From: Pseudomonadota bacterium
Lineage (GTDB): Bacteria; Desulfobacterota; Desulfobacteria; Desulfobacterales; RPRI01
Direction: 5' to 3'
DNA length: 17,256 nucleotides
NCBI GenBank assembly: GCA_043825875.1
Contig: JBDRRF010000042.1
Location: 1-17,256 of the forward strand
Under the pieces are notes generated by a model, which was not told the origin of the DNA, searched no databases, and saw only the letters and a list, made by a program, of their open reading frames with translations. Each line of letters opens with the position of its first letter. The stretch's first letter is position 1. Positions 3,984 to 17,093 of the stretch are shown piece after piece. The position numbers and the translations under genes are program-made.

Positions 3984-4334
3984 ATGACTGGATCTATCTG
4001 TTTAAGGATCTTTATACTTATTAGTATAATGACGATTAGCGGTTGCAGCAGCGTCGCATTTCTTGTCGCGAAATATCATACCCATACCATGCTGTTTAAA
4101 TATGAAGGCCAGGCTCAATCGGTTTGTCTTGCCGGTGATTTTAATAAATGGTCACAAAATACTCACTGCCTTGATAAGCAAAACGGGGTATGGTCAATCC
4201 AATTGATGCTCCCGCACGGGACTCATCGCTATGCATTTATTATTAACGGCAAGCAATGGGTGGTTGATCCAAATGCTCTTTTTACAGAAACTGACGGTTT
4301 CGACAGACAAAATTCAGTAATTGTTATTAATTAA
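3984..4334 (+). CDS. Predicted lipoprotein with a CBM48/AMPK-beta-like (E-set) glycogen-binding domain
   Basis: Hydrophobic N-terminus ending in ISGC (lipobox-like), then V.LAGDFNKW...GVWSIQLMLPHGTHRYAFIING.QWVVDP...DGF..QNSVI, the typical AMPK1_CBM/CBM48 pattern. Confidence 0.85.
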   Translation: MTGSICLRIFILISIMTISGCSSVAFLVAKYHTHTMLFKYEGQAQSVCLAGDFNKWSQNTHCLDKQNGVWSIQLMLPHGTHRYAFIINGKQWVVDPNALFTETDGFDRQNSVIVIN

Positions 4335-4455
4335 GAAATTGTGCATCTTTATCCAGAATCTGAATGTGACCAATATTCATTAAAAACGTATATTATTATG
4401 GAGTGTAAAATAATTTTAAACTGTGAAATGTTTTTCTCTGGCGTGAGTACTGAAT

Positions 4456-5028
4456 TTGAAAGAATCCCTGCTGATAAAATCCATACTGGATGGAAATGCA
4501 CAAGAATACGCTATTCTGGTAAACCGGTATAAGCGCCCGATTTTCAATCTTTTGTTTCGCATGACCGGCAACAGGGAAGATGCAGCCGACTTGGCTCAGG
4601 AAACATTTTTAAAAGCATATAAAAATTTTGAAAAATTCAAACTAAGTGAAAGTTTTTTCCCCTGGCTGTACGCAATTGCGTTAAATTTAGCCCGGGACAG
4701 CTGGCGTAAACAAAAACACGCCACAAAACATGCGGAAGAAGTCGGTCGGTTAATGGAAAACTGTCCGGAAGAAAAGACCTATGCAGAAGATCGGATTATA
4801 GTATCAATGGATACAAGGCGTTTGAAAAACTGTCTGAATCAATTGCCCCATAATTACAGGGAGGCATTGATATTGAGGTACCATGAAGGTTTGCCTATGA
4901 GAGATATCGGCAAGGCTCTCGGGGTTTCTACAAGTGGTGCAAAAATGCGTATAAGCAGAGGGTTAGAAAAGCTGCGTGATCTGTTTCAATCGTCTTTTTC
5001 TATCAGTAAAAAGATATCCAAGGAATAA
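4456..5028 (+). CDS. ECF (group IV) RNA polymerase sigma factor
   Basis: Region 2 motifs (REDAADLAQETFLKAY, FFPWLYAIALNLARD) and region 4 HTH (LPHNYREALILRYHEG...DIGKALGVS..GAKMRISRG). The TTG start is uncertain. Confidence 0.95.
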   Translation: MKESLLIKSILDGNAQEYAILVNRYKRPIFNLLFRMTGNREDAADLAQETFLKAYKNFEKFKLSESFFPWLYAIALNLARDSWRKQKHATKHAEEVGRLMENCPEEKTYAEDRIIVSMDTRRLKNCLNQLPHNYREALILRYHEGLPMRDIGKALGVSTSGAKMRISRGLEKLRDLFQSSFSISKKISKE

Positions 5029-5036
5029 CAGGACCA

Positions 5037-5642
5037 TTGAAGAATATGCCAAATAAATTTTCAAATAAAGCTCCTGACATAAATTATCTGACCGGTATAA
5101 TTGCCGGCCTTCCGGATGAAGAGCCGCCAGACGGCTTCACGCAAACGGTTATGCAGCAAATTTCACCTAAGCAGGCCAACATATGGCAAAAATTCTGGCG
5201 TCTTCTGATAACTCCTTTCACAGTTATTTCCATTCGCCCACTTCATACAGCCGGTACTATAATATTAATAGTAGGTCTTCTATTTGCATATAAAACAATT
5301 TGGATATCTCACATATATTATCCTCTTACTGCAAACTCAAAAACGGCCAACATCAAAACTGTTAACTTTATTTTAGATTACCCATCAGCCACAACAGTAG
5401 CAATTATTGGATCATTTAATCACTGGCAGCCGGAACATTATCATATGCAAAAAAATCCGACAGATGGCACATGGCAACTTTCCGTTAAGATGCAACCCGG
5501 CCGCCACACTTATGCTTTTGTTGTTGACGATAATAAAATCATTGCTGATCCCCGCGCATTGTGGGAGCAGGATGACGGTTTTGGAACCCGAAACTCCATC
5601 CTAACCATTAGTAACGGATATTCAGATGAAAACCAAACTTAG
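5037..5642 (+). CDS. Putative membrane-anchored anti-sigma factor with a C-terminal CBM48-like domain
   Basis: Directly downstream of the ECF gene. Cytoplasmic LPDEEPPDGFTQTVMQQI segment typical of anti-sigma N-termini, one TM (AGTIILIVGLLFAY), then VAIIGSFNHW...GTWQLSVKMQPGRHTYAFVVD...DP...DDGFGTRNSIL. Start could be ATG 5046. Confidence 0.82.
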   Translation: MKNMPNKFSNKAPDINYLTGIIAGLPDEEPPDGFTQTVMQQISPKQANIWQKFWRLLITPFTVISIRPLHTAGTIILIVGLLFAYKTIWISHIYYPLTANSKTANIKTVNFILDYPSATTVAIIGSFNHWQPEHYHMQKNPTDGTWQLSVKMQPGRHTYAFVVDDNKIIADPRALWEQDDGFGTRNSILTISNGYSDENQT

Positions 5643-6558
5643 ATATAGTTTATTACTGTTTATCCTGTTTTTGCTCATCGTACCCTGTTACGTATGTGCC
5701 GAAGATAATACTATGCTTGATAACGAGATTCGCCTGGCAAAGTCTTCGGGCATGGATGACGAGAGCATAGGCCGGATACTTTCTGCCGCCAACAGGCATC
5801 AATTAAGTAATGAAAATAAAATACGCTGGATTAAACAGATACGCACAGCCGCTCAGGAAGGGCTTCCTGCATCAGTTATGGTCAACAAGATTGAAGAGGG
5901 AGTGGCTAAAAATGTTGAGGCACAAAGGATTGATGCGGCCTTAGGAAAGACTTTACATCAATTGCGCTTTGTCAACAAACTGACCGAGGGTGAACCTCAT
6001 AACCGCGAAACCTCTACACCCCCGGAAAGAAACCGGATAAATGCCAGGATTAGCGAATTGCTATCTGCCGGATTAACTGAAACTGAAATGAACAGTCTTT
6101 ATACATCCTGGAAGTCAGCTTCTCCGAACCAAAAGCTTGAAGCAATGACCTTTTATGCAGTTGCCAAACAGTCCGGTCTCAACCCCAAAGAGGCCAGCCA
6201 TATCGCTTCTTCAGGTATTGAACATAATCATTTTCACAGCTTTCCTCTTGAGCTATCCATGATGATCAAAGCTGCCAAAGCAAATAAAATTGCAAATTCT
6301 AAAATTACTTCTGAAGCACTTAAAGTAATAAACGGCAAGCAAACGGTTCAGCAAGCGCACAGCAAAATGGGTATTCGCCAATTACACCCCAATCCAAGCA
6401 GAGTATACGATGATTATCCGAATAATAATATGCAGCCTATGGGAATGAGAAGCAACAATAGCCGTTTCGGAAGTTCCAGTAGTGGAAGTTCCGGCAGCGG
6501 CAGTTTCGGCGGCGGACGCAGTGGTGGTGGCGGCGGTGGCGGCGGAAGAGGCCGCTAA
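5626..6558 (+). CDS. Secreted, probably helical hypothetical protein with a Gly/Ser-rich C-terminal tail
   Basis: Sec-type signal peptide (…YVCA/EDN). Overlaps the anti-sigma gene by 17 nt. Ala/Glu/Lys-rich body and tail GSSSSGSSGSGSFGGGRSGGGGGGGGRGR. Confidence 0.8.
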   Translation: MKTKLRYSLLLFILFLLIVPCYVCAEDNTMLDNEIRLAKSSGMDDESIGRILSAANRHQLSNENKIRWIKQIRTAAQEGLPASVMVNKIEEGVAKNVEAQRIDAALGKTLHQLRFVNKLTEGEPHNRETSTPPERNRINARISELLSAGLTETEMNSLYTSWKSASPNQKLEAMTFYAVAKQSGLNPKEASHIASSGIEHNHFHSFPLELSMMIKAAKANKIANSKITSEALKVINGKQTVQQAHSKMGIRQLHPNPSRVYDDYPNNNMQPMGMRSNNSRFGSSSSGSSGSGSFGGGRSGGGGGGGGRGR

Positions 6559-7987: not shown

Positions 7988-8016
7988 TTGACAGATAATC
8001 ATACATATGGTATCTA
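7988..8016 (+). promoter_or_regulatory. Sigma-70 type promoter of the HTH-Panacea TA operon
   Basis: Perfect TTGACA (7988-7993), 17 nt spacer, then TGn-TATCTA (8008-8016). cagataat is repeated at and upstream of the -35, a possible operator. Confidence 0.55.
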
Positions 8017-8044
8017 TATTTTCAAATCGCAGGAGAATATAAGC

Positions 8045-8833
8045 ATGGATACTTTTTATAAAAATTTAGGATTGAAGATAAAAAAAATAAGAGAAAAAAC
8101 AGGATTGTCCCAAAATTCTCTGGCACAAAAGCTGGGAATTAGCAGAGTGGCTGTTTCGCAAATAGAATCCGGAGACAGAAAAATCAGTGCTGAAGAGATA
8201 GTTATGCTTGCTGAAACATTTAATATCCAAACGGATGTTCTGTTGGATATTACAAAAGATATAAAAATCGTATTTCAAAAAGACACAAAGAAACAAGCAA
8301 AAAAACAGGAAATCAGAATCAGTGTTCCTCAAAGGAATCTGCAAAAATTTAAGGAAGTATTAATCTATATTCTTGAAAAAGTCGGGTCCAAACCCAATGT
8401 TGGAGAAACGGTTCTGTATAAGCTTCTTTATTTCATAGATTTTAATTTTTATGAAAAGTATGAAGATCAATTAATAGGAGCAACTTATATAAAAAACAAG
8501 TATGGGCCAACGCCTAAAGAATTTATAAAAGTCATAGAAGAAATGGAGGGAAAAGATTTGGTAAGGGTAAAAGACAATTATTTTAAATATCCGCAGACTA
8601 AATATTTACCTTTAAGAAAATCCGATCTGACTCAGCTAAAAGCACACGAAAAAGAAGTAATAGATGATGTTTTAAATACTTTGTCAAATATGAATGCTTC
8701 CGAGATCAGTGAATACTCCCATAATGATGTTCCATGGCAAACTACAGATGATGGAGATATTATTCAATATGAAGCAGTATTTTATAGAACTTCGCCTTAT
8801 TCGGTGAGAAATTATAATGAAAAAAGTCTTTAA
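8045..8833 (+). CDS. XRE-HTH fused to a Panacea (DUF4065/SocA-like) antitoxin domain
   Basis: N-terminal IREKTGLSQNSLAQKLGISRVAVSQIESGDRK HTH. C-terminal LYKLLYFIDF...Y.KNKYGP.P...ISEYSHNDVPW Panacea signature. aggag RBS before ATG 8045. Confidence 0.9.
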   Translation: MDTFYKNLGLKIKKIREKTGLSQNSLAQKLGISRVAVSQIESGDRKISAEEIVMLAETFNIQTDVLLDITKDIKIVFQKDTKKQAKKQEIRISVPQRNLQKFKEVLIYILEKVGSKPNVGETVLYKLLYFIDFNFYEKYEDQLIGATYIKNKYGPTPKEFIKVIEEMEGKDLVRVKDNYFKYPQTKYLPLRKSDLTQLKAHEKEVIDDVLNTLSNMNASEISEYSHNDVPWQTTDDGDIIQYEAVFYRTSPYSVRNYNEKSL

Positions 8834-9188
8834 TGAAATACGAAGACTCGCTGAATTTGAAAAGGATTTTAAGAAGCTTTTAAAAAAGTATAAAACTCTT
8901 AATGAAGATCTCGATACATTTATCAACAGTCAGCTTAAGCTTACTCATAAACTGGGAATAGACAATAAAGCAGTTGTCCAAATCTCAGATTCAGGAATTA
9001 AAACTCCCAGGATATACAAAGCAAAAAAATTTGCCTGCAAAGCTCTGAAGGGTCGTGGAGTAATGAGTGGCATAAGAATAATATATGCATACTATGAAGC
9101 AGAAGATATCATTGAATTTATAGAAATTTATTTTAAGGGTGATAAGGAAAACGAGGATAAAAATCGGATTAAAAAATATTATGGCTAA
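8817..9188 (+). CDS. RelE/ParE superfamily (HigB-like) toxin
   Basis: EFEKDFKKLLKKY, IYKAKK...KGRGVMSGIRIIYAY...IEIYFKGDKEN. Basic 123-aa protein overlapping the antitoxin by 17 nt. Confidence 0.8.
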   Translation: MKKVFNEIRRLAEFEKDFKKLLKKYKTLNEDLDTFINSQLKLTHKLGIDNKAVVQISDSGIKTPRIYKAKKFACKALKGRGVMSGIRIIYAYYEAEDIIEFIEIYFKGDKENEDKNRIKKYYG

Positions 9189-9552: not shown

Positions 9553-10239
9553 ATGAAAAGAATGTTGATAAATATAATTATTGTTGTAGTATTTTCAATA
9601 TTTTTAATTTCTCAAGCTTATGCAACTCCTTGGACTGACAGCACAATTCATTGGGATAGTTGGGCAGATGGAAGAACTTCACTTGACTCACTAGATGCTT
9701 ATGGTAACCCACAGATTTCAGGAGGAACTTATACAGCTAATTCAGGATTTTTAACCCAGATATCGTTCGATTACTATATAGGTGCAGACATAACTGCTGC
9801 CGGTGTTACTGCTGCTGATCTTTTTATTGATAATAATGCGGATGGCAATTGGGATTATGTAGTAAATCTTTATGCAGATTCCACCACAATTTATGGGATA
9901 AATATTGCTGAGTCAGCATCTGGAGCATATGAATTTTCTACTGCTAATAGCGGATGGGATTGGAGACACAATCACCCCATAGCACTTATTGACTACGGGT
10001 CAGATATCTTTGGTTCAGTTTCTTGGAACGGATTTGATAATTCGATTGGGAATCATACAACAACTGTAAATTTTGACAACCTTTCTGTTAGCAACGAATT
10101 TATTTTTGCATGGACAGTAAGCTGTGCAAATGATGTAGTTATGGAACACGGCTATTCTGTCCCTGAACCAGCTACACTTCTCCTTCTTGGCTTCGGCCTG
10201 GTAGGACTTGCAGGTGCAGGCAGAAAGTTGAAAAAATAG
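9553..10239 (+). CDS. PEP-CTERM sorting domain protein (exosortase target)
   Basis: ggagg RBS, signal peptide ending AYA, Ser/Thr/Asp-rich body, C-terminal VPEP-ATLLLLGFGLVGLAGAG-RKLKK. Confidence 0.95.
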   Translation: MKRMLINIIIVVVFSIFLISQAYATPWTDSTIHWDSWADGRTSLDSLDAYGNPQISGGTYTANSGFLTQISFDYYIGADITAAGVTAADLFIDNNADGNWDYVVNLYADSTTIYGINIAESASGAYEFSTANSGWDWRHNHPIALIDYGSDIFGSVSWNGFDNSIGNHTTTVNFDNLSVSNEFIFAWTVSCANDVVMEHGYSVPEPATLLLLGFGLVGLAGAGRKLKK

Positions 10240-10436: not shown

Positions 10437-10456
10437 CGTCGGTTTTCTTTACAATT
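10437..10456 (+). promoter_or_regulatory. PEP-CTERM box (putative enhancer)
   Basis: cgtcgg-ttttc-tttaca-att, about 150 nt upstream of the sigma-54 site at 10603. Confidence 0.7.
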
Positions 10457-10685: not shown

Positions 10686-10853
10686 ATGAAAACCTTAAAA
10701 ATAATTTTAATTTTAGCTGCATCTTTGATTATTTCTGCGTCAACTGCATTAGCCGCACCTGAGGCTATTACTGTTCCTGAACCTGCAAGTATTATACTTC
10801 TTGGTTTCGGGCTGGTAGGGTTAATTATCTCCCGGAATAAATTCAAGAAATAG
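10686..10853 (+). CDS. Minimal 55-aa PEP-CTERM protein (signal peptide, 6 aa, sorting signal)
   Basis: Manual translation: MKTLKIILILAASLIISASTALA-APEAIT-VPEPASIILLGFGLVGLIISRNKFKK*. ggag RBS at 10672-10675. Too short for the ORF track. Confidence 0.9.
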   Translation: MKTLKIILILAASLIISASTALAAPEAITVPEPASIILLGFGLVGLIISRNKFKK

Positions 10854-11241: not shown

Positions 11242-11370
11242 CCTGACCCGCAAAATTACCTCTGTACTTACCACCAGACTCCGCGAAGCAGATGGATGCT
11301 TCGGGCCGCTCTTCCGGAGCTGCCTGAAATACTTCCTGTTAATCCTGTAAATCCTGTCCGATATTTTTTT
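11242..11370. repeat. ~130 bp direct repeat, copy 1
   Basis: cctgacccgcaaaattacctctgtacttaccac...actccgcgaa...hairpin...tgttaatcctgtaaatcctgtccgatattttttt. The second copy is at 12355-12485. Confidence 0.9.
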
Positions 11371-11531: not shown

Positions 11532-11978
11532 TCAAGGCAGGTTTTCAAAATCGTCTAAATCTTTATGCCTTCCACTCGATTTCTTATTAATCTTCAATTG
11601 CTTCAAACTAATGATATTTACTTCAATTCCATCTATTTCATCAACAATCTTTTGCTTAAAGCACTCCTCAAAATTAACACCGGAAATCGTTGTTAATATT
11701 TCAATCCGTATAGGAGCAATACCCATGCGTATAATACTGTTCTTTTTAAGGAACAGTTCTTTTGATAATTGGGGTGTATCAAAACCGAATTCTTTTAAAG
11801 CCAATACCATTTGCTCCGCAATTTCAGGATCTATCGCTATCCAAATATCCATATCATTTGTTGCTCGTGGATATCCATGATAGCCAACAGCATATCCACC
11901 AATCAACAAGTATCTGATATGTTTAATCTTGAGTATATTCAAGAACTCTTTGAAGTCTGGAGGTAGCAGCATGTCCAT
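11532..11978 (-). CDS. Nucleotidyltransferase family protein (Pol-beta superfamily; possible TA component)
   Basis: YLLIGGYAVGYHGYPRATNDMDIW (GG..A, D.D motif) and C-terminal L.INKKSSGRHKDLDDFENL. Confidence 0.88.
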   Translation of the reverse strand: MDMLLPPDFKEFLNILKIKHIRYLLIGGYAVGYHGYPRATNDMDIWIAIDPEIAEQMVLALKEFGFDTPQLSKELFLKKNSIIRMGIAPIRIEILTTISGVNFEECFKQKIVDEIDGIEVNIISLKQLKINKKSSGRHKDLDDFENLP

Positions 11979-12159
11979 AATTAATCCTTCTTAATACTTC
12001 AATATGTCGCATTCTTTCAATTGGAGTCTTGGCAAACCAATAGTTCTTGTCATCCGATTGATCTGACAATGACACAACTGAGAAGAAACTTTTGTCTAGT
12101 TTTATATCAACCAATTCTTTATCCATATCTTTCACTTTCGTCATAATATCATCATTCAT
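11923..12159 (-). CDS. Small hypothetical protein, overlapping upstream partner of the nucleotidyltransferase
   Basis: gagg RBS before ATG 12159. LDKSFFSVVSL...DDKNYWFAKTPIERMRHIEVLRRINYG....RLQRVLE. Overlaps the NTase start by 56 nt. Confidence 0.75.
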   Translation of the reverse strand: MNDDIMTKVKDMDKELVDIKLDKSFFSVVSLSDQSDDKNYWFAKTPIERMRHIEVLRRINYGHAATSRLQRVLEYTQD

Positions 12160-12354
12160 ATTTATCCTCATATTATCATTACTATCTATTATTTATACTT
12201 ATATGTCAAGCCATCTTCCTTTTATCAACCAGGTAACCGCATTTAGATTTTTCATACACACTATTTTGAATGATATAATGTTTTTAGACAGGATTAACTG
12301 GATGGACAGGCAATAAGCCATTGCATGAAGCTACAATAAGAAAAGGCAAAAACG

Positions 12355-12485
12355 CCTGACCCGCAAAATTACCTCTGTACTTACCACGAAACTCCGCGAA
12401 ACGGAAACATGCTTCAGACCGCTCTTTCCGGTGCGGTCTGAAAAATATTCTTGTTAATCCTGTAAATCCTGCCCGATATTTTTTT
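12355..12485. repeat. ~130 bp direct repeat, copy 2
   Basis: Same sequence as 11242-11370 with substitutions. Perfect stem ttcagaccgc/gcggtctgaa at 12413-12442. An inverted partner of its 3' motif (gacaggattaactggat) lies at 12287-12303. Confidence 0.9.
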
Positions 12486-12559: not shown

Positions 12560-12579
12560 TGTCGGAATAGTTTACAATT
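12560..12579 (+). promoter_or_regulatory. PEP-CTERM box (putative enhancer)
   Basis: tgtcgg-aatag-tttaca-att. Confidence 0.72.
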
Positions 12580-12671: not shown

Positions 12672-12691
12672 TGTCGGGATAGTTTACGATT
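12672..12691 (+). promoter_or_regulatory. PEP-CTERM box (putative enhancer)
   Basis: tgtcgg-gatag-tttacg-att, about 107 nt upstream of the sigma-54 site. Confidence 0.7.
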
Positions 12692-12794
12692 TTAAGCATG
12701 TGGTGGGTGATACGAAATAAAGGAACATTGTTGTATAATATTATTTATTATAAAATGCATAAGTTACAATTATTATAAAATTATTATTTGCCAT

Positions 12795-12810
12795 AGGCAT
12801 ATAATTTGCT
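12795..12810 (+). promoter_or_regulatory. Sigma-54 (-24/-12) promoter
   Basis: aGG-catataattt-GCt, GG-N10-GC spacing. Confidence 0.8.
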
Positions 12811-12883
12811 TAATTATAAATTAAACATATAAGAAACAAAAATTTGAAATAAATAAAAATAAAAAAAAGGAGGAGGCTTAAAA

Positions 12884-13513
12884 ATGAAAAGATTAATTAC
12901 CATAATCACAACATGTTTTATTGCATTCATTCTTATGGCATCAGGTTCAAACGTCATGGCGGATTCTATCGGAACCGGTGACATCATTAAATTATATGAT
13001 GCCGGTGGCACAACAGATGGTGGACCCTTTAAAGTTTACGAAGGTGGTATATATCAATTCGATACGTTCTGCCTGGAATTGAATGAGTTCTTAAGTTTTG
13101 GAACCGAATACACCGTGGAGATATCCGATTCAGCCAGTATGGGCGGTATTGGTGGTGGTTCCCCTGATCCTCTTGATGCCATGACTGCTTACCTGTATAT
13201 GGGTTTCAGGGCAGGCACACACACTGATGTCGATGCACTCCAGATGGCAATTTGGTTTATCGAAGATGAAACAACAGAATCGCTTGTAGGTACGGCATTA
13301 GACTATTATAATGAGGCATCAAAGAACGCAACTGACATCGGTCAAGTCCGAGTAATGAATCTTACTTCTGAAGTAATTGACCCATTGACCAGCGAAACCG
13401 TAATACACAACCAGTCCTTATTAACCATTGTTCCTGAGCCTGCTACATTGGTTCTTCTCGGGTTAGGTCTTATTGGCTTAGCAGGAATAAGAAGGAAATC
13501 TTTTAAAAAATAA
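12884..13513 (+). CDS. PEP-CTERM sorting domain protein with thioester-domain-like motifs
   Basis: aggaggagg RBS, signal peptide, FCLE / LQMAIW / NQSLL motifs, C-terminal VPEP-ATLVLLGLGLIGLAGI-RRKSFKK. Confidence 0.95.
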   Translation: MKRLITIITTCFIAFILMASGSNVMADSIGTGDIIKLYDAGGTTDGGPFKVYEGGIYQFDTFCLELNEFLSFGTEYTVEISDSASMGGIGGGSPDPLDAMTAYLYMGFRAGTHTDVDALQMAIWFIEDETTESLVGTALDYYNEASKNATDIGQVRVMNLTSEVIDPLTSETVIHNQSLLTIVPEPATLVLLGLGLIGLAGIRRKSFKK

Positions 13514-13536
13514 TTCATAATATTTATTTATAGATT

Positions 13537-13569
13537 AAAAAGGCGGAGTCTTTATGACTCTGCCTTTTT
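13537..13569. terminator. Rho-independent terminator, probably bidirectional
   Basis: aaaaaggcggagtc-tttat-gactctgccttttt between convergent genes. Related to the other two terminators. Confidence 0.85.
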
Positions 13570-13768
13570 AATTTTCTCACTCGCCCAAATAAAAAAACTG
13601 AAAATCTATCATCTATCGAATTTTCAACGAAGTCGAATTTATGTACCAGGAATAATTATTTAATATTCTTTAATTATATTAATCTAACCCGGTTTTTGGC
13701 TTCGTTTCTCATAGAATACCGTTTACGGTATAAAATTGCCTTTTATAAAACCATCAAATGTACTGGGA

Positions 13769-14896
13769 TCAACTTATTTTTTTAAAAGAAAAGAAATAGA
13801 ATCTCTGGATCAGACAAGCAATGCGGTACAGGCAGTTTAACAGAATATTCGGTATGTAAACAAGTGCTTCCGGCAGATAAACAATTTTACCTCCAAAACC
13901 CATTTTAAAATAGGTGGGTGTTTGTATTATTTCCTTTGGCAACACCTTATTTTGCTTTATATACAAAGCTGCTTTTCGATCTACAGAAACAAAATCTATA
14001 TACCTGTACCCTTTTGAGTTTGCCCATTTTATAAGGTTCCAGTAAAGCGCATCATTCGGCCTCATTTTATTGTATTTGCCCGACCAGCCACCCTTCCAGA
14101 ATATAAACCGGTCGTCAATTGTAACTGCAAGACCTCCGGAAACGGGTTCACCTTCATGTTGAATAAAAAAAAGTTTGAGATATCCTTGCGGTTTAAACAG
14201 CTGCCATATGGTTTCTATATGATTTTTATCAGGTGGGTTGGGCGCAACACCCTGACGCCTGCAAGTTTCCGACATAAGCTCAAAAAATATTCCCAGTTCC
14301 GTTTCACAACCTTCAAGAAAATTAGTACCGGTAGATATAGACCTTCTTATATTCCATCTCTTCTTTGCTGTCATCTGCTTTAAAAGAACGTTCTCATCTT
14401 TACCAAGATCAATCTGTAACGTAGTATCTATTATACCTTTATAAACTATATTGGGAAGAAACCCGTTTTTACACAGTTGAACAGAAATATTATCTGAATG
14501 GCAGGCAGGCTGAACTATAACTGCTCTTATTTTATGTTTTTTTACTATTGCCTTAAGCTGATCAATAACAAATGCCATGGTGGCAGCATCATTATCATTG
14601 ATAATAGGCCCCTGACTGACATATGCGATACGACCAAGAAAGCGTTTGGAAACCCAGAGCAGTTGAAATCCGCCGATTATCCCGATATGATTAGTTATTA
14701 CAACACGGATATAATTCCACCCATCCAGAGATTTGACCTGTGACCACAAACTTAACTGTTCATGCCGGCCCTCAGGTGCAGATTCCACAAAAGAATCCCA
14801 CTGTGAATCTATTGGATCAGGAGAAAGCCATGCAGTAAGAACAGATCCGTTAAGCCTTAGCTCAGTAATTTTTTTGTATTTATCTGTAACTATCAT
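13769..14896 (-). CDS. FemAB/FemX-like (double GNAT fold) aminoacyl/peptidyl transferase
   Basis: WDSFV...Q...WSQVK...GW, YVSQGP, IDL......LLKQM..K.RWNIRRS, PNDALYWNLIKWA...GY..IDF, FKMGFGG. Start placed at ATG 14896 to avoid a 127 nt overlap with the upstream gene. Confidence 0.88.
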   Translation of the reverse strand: MIVTDKYKKITELRLNGSVLTAWLSPDPIDSQWDSFVESAPEGRHEQLSLWSQVKSLDGWNYIRVVITNHIGIIGGFQLLWVSKRFLGRIAYVSQGPIINDNDAATMAFVIDQLKAIVKKHKIRAVIVQPACHSDNISVQLCKNGFLPNIVYKGIIDTTLQIDLGKDENVLLKQMTAKKRWNIRRSISTGTNFLEGCETELGIFFELMSETCRRQGVAPNPPDKNHIETIWQLFKPQGYLKLFFIQHEGEPVSGGLAVTIDDRFIFWKGGWSGKYNKMRPNDALYWNLIKWANSKGYRYIDFVSVDRKAALYIKQNKVLPKEIIQTPTYFKMGFGGKIVYLPEALVYIPNILLNCLYRIACLIQRFYFFSFKKIS

Positions 14897-14913
14897 AGTA
14901 AATAATATACAAT

Positions 14914-16092
14914 CTAACTTGCTCTCGGGAAAAATTTTTGATATAATATCCGTACAACTTTCACAAATCCTTTTGTTTCCAGAACCCTGCTTAGTCCATG
15001 CTTCATACACCACCGTAAAATAGGATTCGGAAAATAGCAATACTCCCCTGGCAGAAGAATAATTTTCCCCCCAAGCCCTGTCTTAAAAAAAGTAATAGAA
15101 CAATGAAAAGGCTCCGACCTGTCTCGCCCATTGAGAAGTTCCTCGGCATCCCGTCTGTCAATGCCTATAACATCAAAATATTTAAATCCTTTATCTTTTG
15201 CCCATTTAATTGCTTCCCAGTAAAGTAGATCGTTTGGATATAATTTAGAGCATCTTCCTGACCATCCGATACGCCAGGCACGAGCATAATCTCCAAATGT
15301 AAAAATCAACAAACTATTGATAAATTCATCATCTTGACGAAGCAACAGCAAATGTATCCACCCACGTGGAGCAAAAGCTGCCCAGAGCCGCTGAATAAAA
15401 TCATCACCAGGCAGATTAGGGCTGGTTCCCCTACGCTGACAGAGCAATCGCATCAGTTCCTTAAAAACTATGAGATGTTCAACCGATCCATGAATCAACT
15501 CTAATCTACTCTTAAGACTTCTTCTCTTAAGACTTCTTCGAACATGTTTTCTTGTCGTAGACCTCAAGTTTGTAATCAGCAAATCTTTATCAAGACTAAG
15601 GTCAATAATAACTGAGGCCTTAGCCCAAACAGAAGGAGGCAAAACATCCGGCCTTACCTGAAATCCTGCCAATAACATCTCCTGTACCATTGACTCTGAA
15701 AAGTAAGGAAGGCTTACAGCAAGATAAAAAAGACGGCGTTTTCCGGATAACCATTTGATCGCACGCAATACCAACGAAGGATCCGCTCCTTTCAAAACAA
15801 GAGGCCCGCGGCAGATATAGCCGATTCGAATCACTTTTTTTATCACAAATTCCAGAATCTGAGCGCCACCAATAATAAGCCCGTCTTTGACGAGATATAT
15901 CCGGACAGGCTTCCACCCATAATTACTGCGAATTTCCCCCCAGACAGAAGTTTGCTCCGGCTGAGGATCGCTGTGCATTTCTACAAACTGATCCCACTGC
16001 CTATCCTCGGCATCCGTCGAAACAACTAACTTGATTCCAAGATGCTTCAGATACTTATTTTCATACTTAGATTTGATCTTTTCATTCAGCAT
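14914..16092 (-). CDS. FemAB/FemX-like (double GNAT fold) aminoacyl/peptidyl transferase
   Basis: WDQFV...QTSVWGEIR...GW, GYICRGP, IDL, PNDLLYWEAIKWAKDKGFKYFD, FFKTGLGG. Paralogue of the neighbouring gene. Confidence 0.9.
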   Translation of the reverse strand: MLNEKIKSKYENKYLKHLGIKLVVSTDAEDRQWDQFVEMHSDPQPEQTSVWGEIRSNYGWKPVRIYLVKDGLIIGGAQILEFVIKKVIRIGYICRGPLVLKGADPSLVLRAIKWLSGKRRLFYLAVSLPYFSESMVQEMLLAGFQVRPDVLPPSVWAKASVIIDLSLDKDLLITNLRSTTRKHVRRSLKRRSLKSRLELIHGSVEHLIVFKELMRLLCQRRGTSPNLPGDDFIQRLWAAFAPRGWIHLLLLRQDDEFINSLLIFTFGDYARAWRIGWSGRCSKLYPNDLLYWEAIKWAKDKGFKYFDVIGIDRRDAEELLNGRDRSEPFHCSITFFKTGLGGKIILLPGEYCYFPNPILRWCMKHGLSRVLETKGFVKVVRILYQKFFPRAS

Positions 16093-16618: not shown

Positions 16619-16638
16619 TGTCGGGAATCTTTACAATT
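16619..16638 (+). promoter_or_regulatory. PEP-CTERM box (putative enhancer)
   Basis: tgtcgg-gaatc-tttaca-att. Confidence 0.68.
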
Positions 16639-16726
16639 TCATTCAGCTCATATTATATTCATATTTATAATATTACAGCATTTAATTTGCTTAAACTCCG
16701 TCAAACCTTTATAATAGGCAAAATAG

Positions 16727-16746
16727 TGTCGGTTTTCTTTACAATT
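16727..16746 (+). promoter_or_regulatory. PEP-CTERM box (putative enhancer)
   Basis: tgtcgg-ttttc-tttaca-att. Confidence 0.68.
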
Positions 16747-17037
16747 ATTCGTATAAGTCTAAATAAACAAATAGTTATACTGACATATATTTTTTCTAAA
16801 TATAATAGCCTGATTATTTAATTAATAACTATTACTATTTATAGCATTTATTTTAATTAGCTTCGTTTGCATCAAAATTATCTATCCCGAATATGTCTGC
16901 ATTATTTATTTAATTAAACATTTGTCCCATTAAAAATTATTATTAAATATATTTATAGCTATTTCAATATTATATGCGCTTATATATCCTTGCGTCTTAC
17001 AGCTTGTGGCTTTACTTTTATACCATTTTACTTCCAG

Positions 17038-17072
17038 CCTTATTCCTTAGACCTTGAGCCTTTATCCTTTCT
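17038..17072. repeat. Second heptamer family (CCTTnnn x5)
   Basis: ccttatt ccttaga ccttgag cctttat cctttct, directly abutting the box at 17074. Confidence 0.65.
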
Positions 17073-17073
17073 G

Positions 17074-17093
17074 TGTCGGTTTACTTTACAATT
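17074..17093 (+). promoter_or_regulatory. PEP-CTERM box (putative enhancer)
   Basis: tgtcgg-tttac-tttaca-att, about 128 nt upstream of the sigma-54 site. Confidence 0.72.

Follow-up and report, generated by a model that had tools for sequence, protein, structure and literature searches.

The gene at 12884..13513 (+ strand) of the 17,256-nucleotide window, the whole stretch of DNA analysed here, encodes a 209-residue PEP-CTERM protein whose mature part is predicted to be a single thioester domain (TED), in which C63 and Q177 would likely form an internal thioester able to bond covalently to an amine at the cell surface or in the matrix. We assign this reading a probability of about 0.8, a figure that leaves the surface or matrix target broad, overlaps with the alternative of a different target considered below, and does not sum to one with the likelihoods of the other readings.

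An ordered motif set in a family of PEP-CTERM proteins

The gene is preceded by a purine-rich, ribosome-binding-like GGAGG (12872-12876) and followed by an inverted repeat flanked by runs of A and T (13534..13572), a likely terminator that separates it from two convergent FemAB-like genes. The protein begins with a likely Sec signal peptide (residues 1-26; 12884..12961, +), recognized by eye from its basic start, hydrophobic core and V-M-A end, and the structure model of the full-length protein shows a helix at 2-19 in this leader. The mature TED-like domain (residues 27-183; 12962..13432, +), delimited by the model and its fold matches, contains four conserved elements, all on the + strand: F62-C63-L64-E65 (13067..13078), a [YFL]C-hydrophobic-polar motif that aligns with the YC motif of actinobacterial TEDs and holds the predicted thioester Cys, C63; a Gly-rich loop, GGxGGGxPDPL (residues 82-98; 13127..13177), without a helix in the model and at the place where class I TEDs have helix alpha0; Q120-x-x-I-W124 (13241..13255), the equivalent of the TED motif TQxxxW with L for T, on the central helix (116-126); and Q177-S-L-L (13412..13423) on the last strand, where Q177, seven residues before PEP, is the predicted thioester Gln. 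A PEP-CTERM sorting signal with VPEP, a hydrophobic helix and an RRK basic cluster (13430..13510, +) completes the layout of PEP-CTERM cargo; it matched PF07589 (32.8 bits against a cut-off of 20.7, E 6.6e-08) and, also above cut-off, TIGR02595. Pfam and NCBIfam scans of the 209 residues gave matches to this tail alone.

A preliminary description of this DNA had read the motif set TFCLE (61-65), ALQMAIW (118-124) and NQSLL (176-180) ahead of VPEP (183-186), with a single Cys in the mature region. Every motif lies at those positions in the open reading frame, and the only Cys besides C63 is C11, within the hydrophobic leader; the motif observation is real. The three-motif ordered pattern with which we gauged chance was composed with the sequence and the published motifs already in view. 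Shuffling the mature part 100,000 times gave 2 matches; in the genome, the pattern matched 2 of the 2,671 stop-to-stop frames that are 150-400 residues long (one of them the 12884 gene) and 1 of the 10 PEP-CTERM frames (again this gene), and in the family it matched 230 of 233 rows. The protein departs from the published motifs at two places. L replaces the T of TQxxxW, as in 203 of the 233 rows, and the residue preceding Q177 is N rather than hydrophobic, being mostly A, K or R across the family. TQxxxW is itself described as having no fully conserved residue in known TEDs (PMC4450167).

In a first homologue search, which retained 20 proteins including the query from 64 candidates, C63, Q120, W124 and Q177 were invariant. 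GTDB genomes were then scanned with DNA patterns that included C63 and QxAIW and left out Q177, so that conservation of Q177 is an unbiased test; 274 of 358 stretches were confirmed, and the 80 loci kept contained 110 domain hits. Q177 and C63 each occurred in 108 of these hits, the two that lacked Q177 being truncated pieces. An alignment of the query with 106 of the hits (one duplicate and three fragments were left out) gave a profile that, searched against 1.84 billion representatives with an E limit of 0.001, found 4,622 clusters (50% identity). In the pooled alignment of 367 rows, C63 was present in 366, Q120 in 367, W124 in 366 and Q177 in 358 when counted by column, so that the residues singled out in the preliminary description all fall in near-invariant columns; by pattern, the Cys motif and the terminal Gln motif occurred together in 363 rows, where a lack of co-conservation had been named as one outcome that would speak against a thioester. 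The [YFL]C-hydrophobic-polar motif was found in 232 of 233 rows, and 296 of 367 domains had a single Cys. Among multi-Cys domains even counts exceeded odd ones (30 to 12) and some second Cys lay at 172-176, near Q177; parity as a test for a free C63 did not give a clean result and was set aside.

The 80 loci came mostly from Planctomycetota, deltaproteobacterial or Desulfobacterota-type genera, Acidobacteriota and Verrucomicrobiota. One locus, on a 5.8-kb contig, is titled Microbacterium; no match came from 120 further genomes of its phylum, and we suspect mis-binning. Presence was patchy, with 2 of 16 genomes of the same genus and 6 of 201 in a sample of the phylum (source genome included) carrying the family. 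The source genome has one copy by the larger profile, with which a weak second match in the genome (E 0.006) disappeared. A tblastn search of plasmids gave no match. The sources name the members, where a name was shown, 'hypothetical protein' or 'PEP-CTERM motif', leaving the family mostly unnamed. Divergent tandem paralogues were seen, 21 of the 80 loci having 2-4 domain hits, one of them a split gene; locus L059, from the cultured carrier Limisphaera sp. VF-2, has two copies. In the planctomycete loci L013, L020, L030 and L056, the tandem arrays mix loop-bearing and loop-less paralogues, and one copy in L030 (9121-9693, minus) has Thr in place of the Cys while keeping the Gln, which makes it a natural negative control.

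The 12884 domain carries neither an LPXTG anchor nor the isopeptide or ester stalk domains of TIE proteins. In relatives too the domain adjoins a PxP-type tail (125 of 126 and 132 of 134 proteins in two counts), which bears out the earlier view of it as compact and stalk-less. Longer fused forms were absent among 8,000 candidates, which is weak evidence, and one fusion was found later: an 801-residue protein (P0207) with an N-terminal TED-like domain, FG-GAP repeats after it and no PEP-CTERM tail.

Predicted fold and the surroundings of C63 and Q177

The AlphaFold2 model of the mature domain (pLDDT 96, pTM 0.90) has six strands and three helices, with C63 at the end of strand 56-63 and QxxxW on helix 116-126. 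In a fold search against 48,161 solved chains, all 8 chains with Z of at least 5 were TEDs, at Z 10.2-7.6 and rmsd 2.8-3.7 A, with alignments covering 120-139 of the 157 residues. Z near 8 is a middling value on the scale of the search tool, and the next match stood at Z 3.5; the same 8 chains led the search with the full-length model. The ten best Foldseek matches were likewise TED chains (probability 0.91-0.99, TM by query about 0.5), none of them reaching E 0.001, and a further Foldseek search gave a similar picture. The preliminary description had proposed a TED-like domain and suggested this very check, and TED structures came out on top in both searches, though with Foldseek E values above 0.001. 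As a further lead, the ESM Atlas structure matches included a Bacillota cluster in which all members carry a TED (TM 0.62). On these models, the mature part is predicted to be one domain of TED fold, a six-stranded barrel with a three-helix bundle.

Miller et al. define class I TEDs by helix alpha0 and class II by a beta-sandwich insert (PMC6194298). In both of our models loop 82-98 is without a helix, so the class I helix between strand D and helix alpha1 is absent, and helix 136-148 runs into strand 155-165, without the class II beta-sandwich of about 75 residues before the Gln strand. Because both inserts are missing from the model, the domain would belong to neither class; clusters of Gram-positive TEDs that blur the two classes have already been described by Monzon and Bateman (PMC9210967).

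Coevolution analysis bears on the placement of C63 relative to Q177. With 233 rows, the antiparallel register i+j=240, which sets 63 opposite 177, ranked first, and in 3 of 25 permutations the top register scored higher still; with 367 rows, the scores of 1.27 for i+j=242 and 1.17 for i+j=240 exceeded the maximum of every one of the 21 permutations (highest 1.03). The coupled pairs in the larger alignment were F59-T181 (z 4.4), L64-S178 (z 2.9) and T61-L179 (z 2.5). These couplings lend modest support to adjacent, antiparallel strands carrying C63 and Q177. A gapless back-count from the ends of the structural alignments put Q177 one position beyond the known thioester Gln in SfbI, CpTIE and PnTIE, and with the full-length model exactly on Gln247 of PnTIE, a coarse measure given that the ends of alignment ranges are not residue-level alignments. 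By analogy with known TEDs, we consider it very probable that the C63-Q177 thioester forms.

The same 367 rows revealed couplings of the Gly-rich loop with acidic residues (D95-E127, G90-D128 and G88-E129) and with N67 (N67-G91), as well as C63-E68 and E65-G87/G88. The acids are highly conserved (E65 in 365 rows, E68 in 358, D95 in 346, E127 in 348 and E129 in 343), and the GG loop and the pair E127 and E129 occurred together in 341 rows, were jointly missing from 21 and were discordant in 5. These counts include kin that are not independent, the 21 loop-less rows among them containing related planctomycete paralogues. The pattern is consistent with a loop at 82-98 that may be clamped by a metal.

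At the sequence level, the link to TEDs appears weak but specific. The HMMER comparison suggested in the preliminary description did not bring the protein itself into the known models, with no match to PF08341 (TED) at E up to 0.1 or to TIGR03934 (TQXA) at E up to 1, and succeeded weakly through its relatives: among 107 rows, PF08341 matched 24 with the E limit set at 1 and 4 with it set at 0.001 (best 2.7e-05), and TIGR03934 matched one (E 0.056). PF08341 was the sole Pfam family to recur among these rows, all others appearing in one or two. A PF08341 scan of the source genome found nothing, and its control was also without a match. The single-sequence search of solved structures returned no hits at E up to 10, and the family profile against solved sequences gave 12 weak matches, none significant and one of them relevant (FNE, E 0.61). 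Profile comparisons were made with class II-type actinobacterial TEDs and pLS20 p34, a set that holds no class I sequences. Against five actinobacterial TEDs, C63 and QxAIW aligned with their motifs (E 0.0034, hhalign probability 9.5%), with the Gln, on the far side of the class II insert, left unaligned; the comparison with pLS20 p34 gave E 0.22, and global mode gave nothing significant. In one ESM Atlas cluster, PF08341 is annotated on 11% of the members and Pseudomonadota is the commonest phylum; databases therefore already tag some diderm proteins as TEDs.

Sorting machinery, promoter and neighbouring genes

The source genome, 99.8% complete, encodes an XrtD-type exosortase with an EpsI domain and a second exosortase, both above cut-off, adjacent prsK and prsR genes above their cut-offs, and BamA, again above cut-off and indicative of an outer membrane. 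The earlier assignment of the protein as exosortase-targeted in a diderm host thus agrees both with its tail and with the genome. Upstream of the gene there are two copies of a 17-nt motif of PEP-CTERM promoters, motif 1 (12560..12576, +, a predicted PrsR site that ends in TTTACA, and 12672..12688, +), and a sigma-54-type promoter site, motif 2, with -24(GG)/-12(GC) elements (GG-N10-GC; 12794..12810, +) 73 nt before the ATG. The form of motif 1 used here, 17 nt ending in TTTAC[AG], was drawn from this window. Haft et al. described motifs 1 and 2 upstream of PEP-CTERM genes with a spacer of 32-92 nt (PMC1569441), against 105 nt for this gene. Motif 1 also lies ahead of 5 of the 9 remaining PEP-CTERM frames and occurs at 50 sites in 4.77 Mb at one mismatch. 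A sigma-70 scan found 6 sites where 6.2 were expected, and three RNA contig sets of the same study gave no coverage of the gene body, which has no bearing either way on its expression.

Around the relatives (81 loci), no strictly conserved neighbour gene was found; the recurrent ones encode TPR proteins (23), sensor kinases (15), polysaccharide export proteins (5) and the PEP-CTERM ATPase (4). The two FemAB/GNAT-family genes that converge on the 12884 gene (13769-16092, - strand) match the PEP-CTERM-associated FemAB model weakly, far below its cut-off. Their possible role as suppliers of acceptor amines was given no weight, such genes not being among the 30 largest neighbour clusters of the 81 loci.

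Other PEP-CTERM-related features are present in the window. A second PEP-CTERM protein (9553-10239, +, 228 residues), unrelated to the TED-like family, weakly matches the flocculation protein PepA model NF033554 along the greater part of its sequence, scoring 37.5 bits where the cut-off is 80. A 55-residue open reading frame (10686-10853, +), which has its own motif 1 site at 10437 and a terminator-like repeat, joins a leader almost directly to a PEP-CTERM tail and could be either a minimal cargo or a deletion remnant. Three further motif 1 sites (16619, 16727 and 17074, within 16619-17090, +) lie at the contig end, which suggests that another PEP-CTERM gene follows just beyond it. Between the PEP-CTERM genes, direct repeats at 11242-11370 and 12355-12485 (72 nt at 88% and 38 nt at 95%) flank a two-gene unit (11532-12171) for a 148-residue nucleotidyltransferase-like protein and an 82-residue partner, which looks like an inserted cassette of the toxin-antitoxin type; short repeats related to these were also seen in unrelated contigs of the RNA contig sets. 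A likely toxin-antitoxin pair is found at 7988-9188 (+), where a gene with HTH and SocA/Panacea antitoxin-like parts overlaps one of 123 codons without a confident family match. The region 3984-6558 (+) encodes an ECF sigma factor, a likely anti-sigma factor that bears CBM48, a small protein that also has CBM48, and an exported protein of 310 residues without a family match.

Possible mechanism, alternatives and significance

In the mechanism that we propose, the protein would be exported by Sec and then fold into the predicted TED barrel and three-helix bundle, with C63 and Q177 on adjoining antiparallel strands beside Q120 and W124. As in known TEDs, the C63-Q177 thioester would form spontaneously with loss of ammonia, and the Q177 acyl group would then be transferred to a target amine. 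Walden et al. reported the corresponding loss of 17 Da in 12 of 12 TEDs tested (PMC4450167), and acyl transfer by SfbI to an amine is described as reversible and pH-dependent (PMC13685950). Following the exosortase model (PMC1569441), an exosortase would cleave at PEP and join the new C-terminus, about seven residues from Q177, to a carrier. Because Q177 is seven residues from PEP, the outcome would be a very short covalent linker with two ends and no stalk; its target might be a Lys in a different matrix protein, or else the exopolysaccharide through one of its amino groups.

The chemistry would be the same if the thioester forms and serves another job, such as the capture of foreign molecules (small amines, or proteins from phages or predators) or a periplasmic role; the target alone differs, and we regard this as the more serious of the alternatives, albeit rather unlikely. 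The divergent tandem paralogues and patchy presence seen above would suit it, as would the short reach of a domain without a stalk, and some PEP-CTERM proteins, ScyE/F, are periplasmic (PMC12188702). The matrix reading is favoured over it by a promoter of the PEP-CTERM/PrsR type, which is tied to exopolysaccharide systems (PMC1569441), by recurrent neighbours that include TPR, polysaccharide-export and PEP-CTERM ATPase genes, and by the requirement of PEP-CTERM proteins for retention of exopolysaccharide on cells reported in three genera (PMC12188702, PMC9850573).

Two further explanations dispense with the thioester. The domain could have a TED fold in which C63 and the acids E65, E68, D95, E127 and E129 make a metal site and Q177 is structural, giving a metal-binding or non-covalent matrix protein. 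This fits the strong conservation of the acids (343-365 of 367 rows) and their couplings (C63-E68, E65-G87/G88, D95-E127), and the acidic cluster is unlike known TEDs, since Tokunaga et al. report that PF08341 lacks conserved acid-base residues in the vicinity of the bond (PMC13685950). It is nonetheless improbable: 21 rows lack the Gly loop and E127/E129 alike, yet C63, Q120, W124 and Q177 persist in the loop-less paralogues inspected, E65 falls where the usual Cys motif of TEDs has its polar residue, and the invariant Gln of the last strand would be left unexplained. Least probable is a Cys-nucleophile enzyme (an amidase, a transglutaminase-like protein or a protease) whose likeness to TEDs is a chance match of folds. 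The combination of a single invariant Cys with conserved Gln, Trp, Asn and acidic residues is reminiscent of Cys enzymes, and the fold scores are moderate; yet no His is conserved (11% in the highest column of the family alignment), the 8 chains with Z of at least 5 include no enzyme fold, and no enzyme family recurs in the Pfam and NCBIfam scans of 107 rows.

Compared with class I TEDs (CpTIE-TED 5a0g, SfbI-TED 5a0l, PnTIE-TED 5a0n, Cpa 2xi9/4c0z and FNE 5dcq; PF08341), the domain shares the predicted barrel and three-helix fold over its whole length (Z 7.6-8.4), the order of Cys motif, QxxxW helix and last-strand Gln, and the lack of a beta-sandwich insert; the Cys-to-Gln spacing has a family median of 128, against 129 in CpTIE (Cys138-Gln267, PMC4450167), and is 114 in the 12884 protein. 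It differs in the Gly-rich acidic loop that replaces helix alpha0 in the model, in L for T in TQxxxW, in its low identity (9-16%, with no PF08341 match for this protein), in a PEP-CTERM tail instead of LPXTG, in the lack of a stalk and in its diderm hosts. The best single match was to a class II TED (Z 10.2, rmsd 2.8 A, 120 residues), a class represented in our comparison by BaTIE 6fwv, SaTIE 6fx6, EfmTIE86 6fwy, pLS20 p34 and the Streptomyces 'Cys-Gln thioester bond-forming surface protein'. Helix alpha0 is absent in both, and the actinobacterial motifs LFEM..TYC[VI]D, TQxAIW and Q-T-[QL]-I-L resemble GGEF..TFCLE, LQxAIW and Q-D-Q-L of the family, which, in contrast, has no 75-residue beta-sandwich or slipknot and a QxxxW-to-Gln distance of 48-81 residues. 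With known PEP-CTERM cargo (TIGR02595; PepA of Zoogloea and Aquincola; hormogonium proteins of Nostoc) the protein has in common the leader, the tail, its own sigma-54 promoter with motif 1, and a genome encoding PrsK/PrsR and exosortases. It is unlike them in that no named NCBIfam PEP-CTERM subfamily covers the domain, such matches being to the tail and below cut-off, and the accounts in PMC12188702 and PMC9850573 describe no reactive chemistry of their own for PEP-CTERM proteins. The alpha-2-macroglobulin and complement thioester proteins, which also occur in Gram-negative bacteria and archaea, share the Cys-Gln thioester chemistry but have an unrelated fold, a local CxEQ motif and proteolytic activation (PMC6194298, PMC8416519), and were absent from the top fold matches.

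TEDs have been placed 'exclusively in Gram-positive bacteria' (PMC4450167) and, as of October 2026, in 'Firmicutes and Actinobacteria' (PMC13685950), and in the titles and abstract openings covered we found no description of a TED on PEP-CTERM proteins. More tentatively, and with the odds rather against it, the family may constitute a third, minimal class of TEDs with thousands of members in diderm phyla, acting as covalent staples of the PEP-CTERM system with a metal-clamped Gly loop as a gate. The means by which PEP-CTERM proteins bind exopolysaccharide to cells is described as unresolved (PMC12188702, PMC9850573); if the staple reading were true, it would provide the first chemistry for the retention of slime by PEP-CTERM proteins in flocs and biofilms. 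A 157-residue domain with two named residues would open one such mechanism to a single mass measurement, and it would also offer a small scaffold for amine-reactive tags. Furthermore, with its 4,622 clusters and with named members that come mostly from Planctomycetota, Desulfobacterota-type bacteria, Acidobacteriota and Verrucomicrobiota, the family would extend covalent adhesion from host binding to environmental biofilms.
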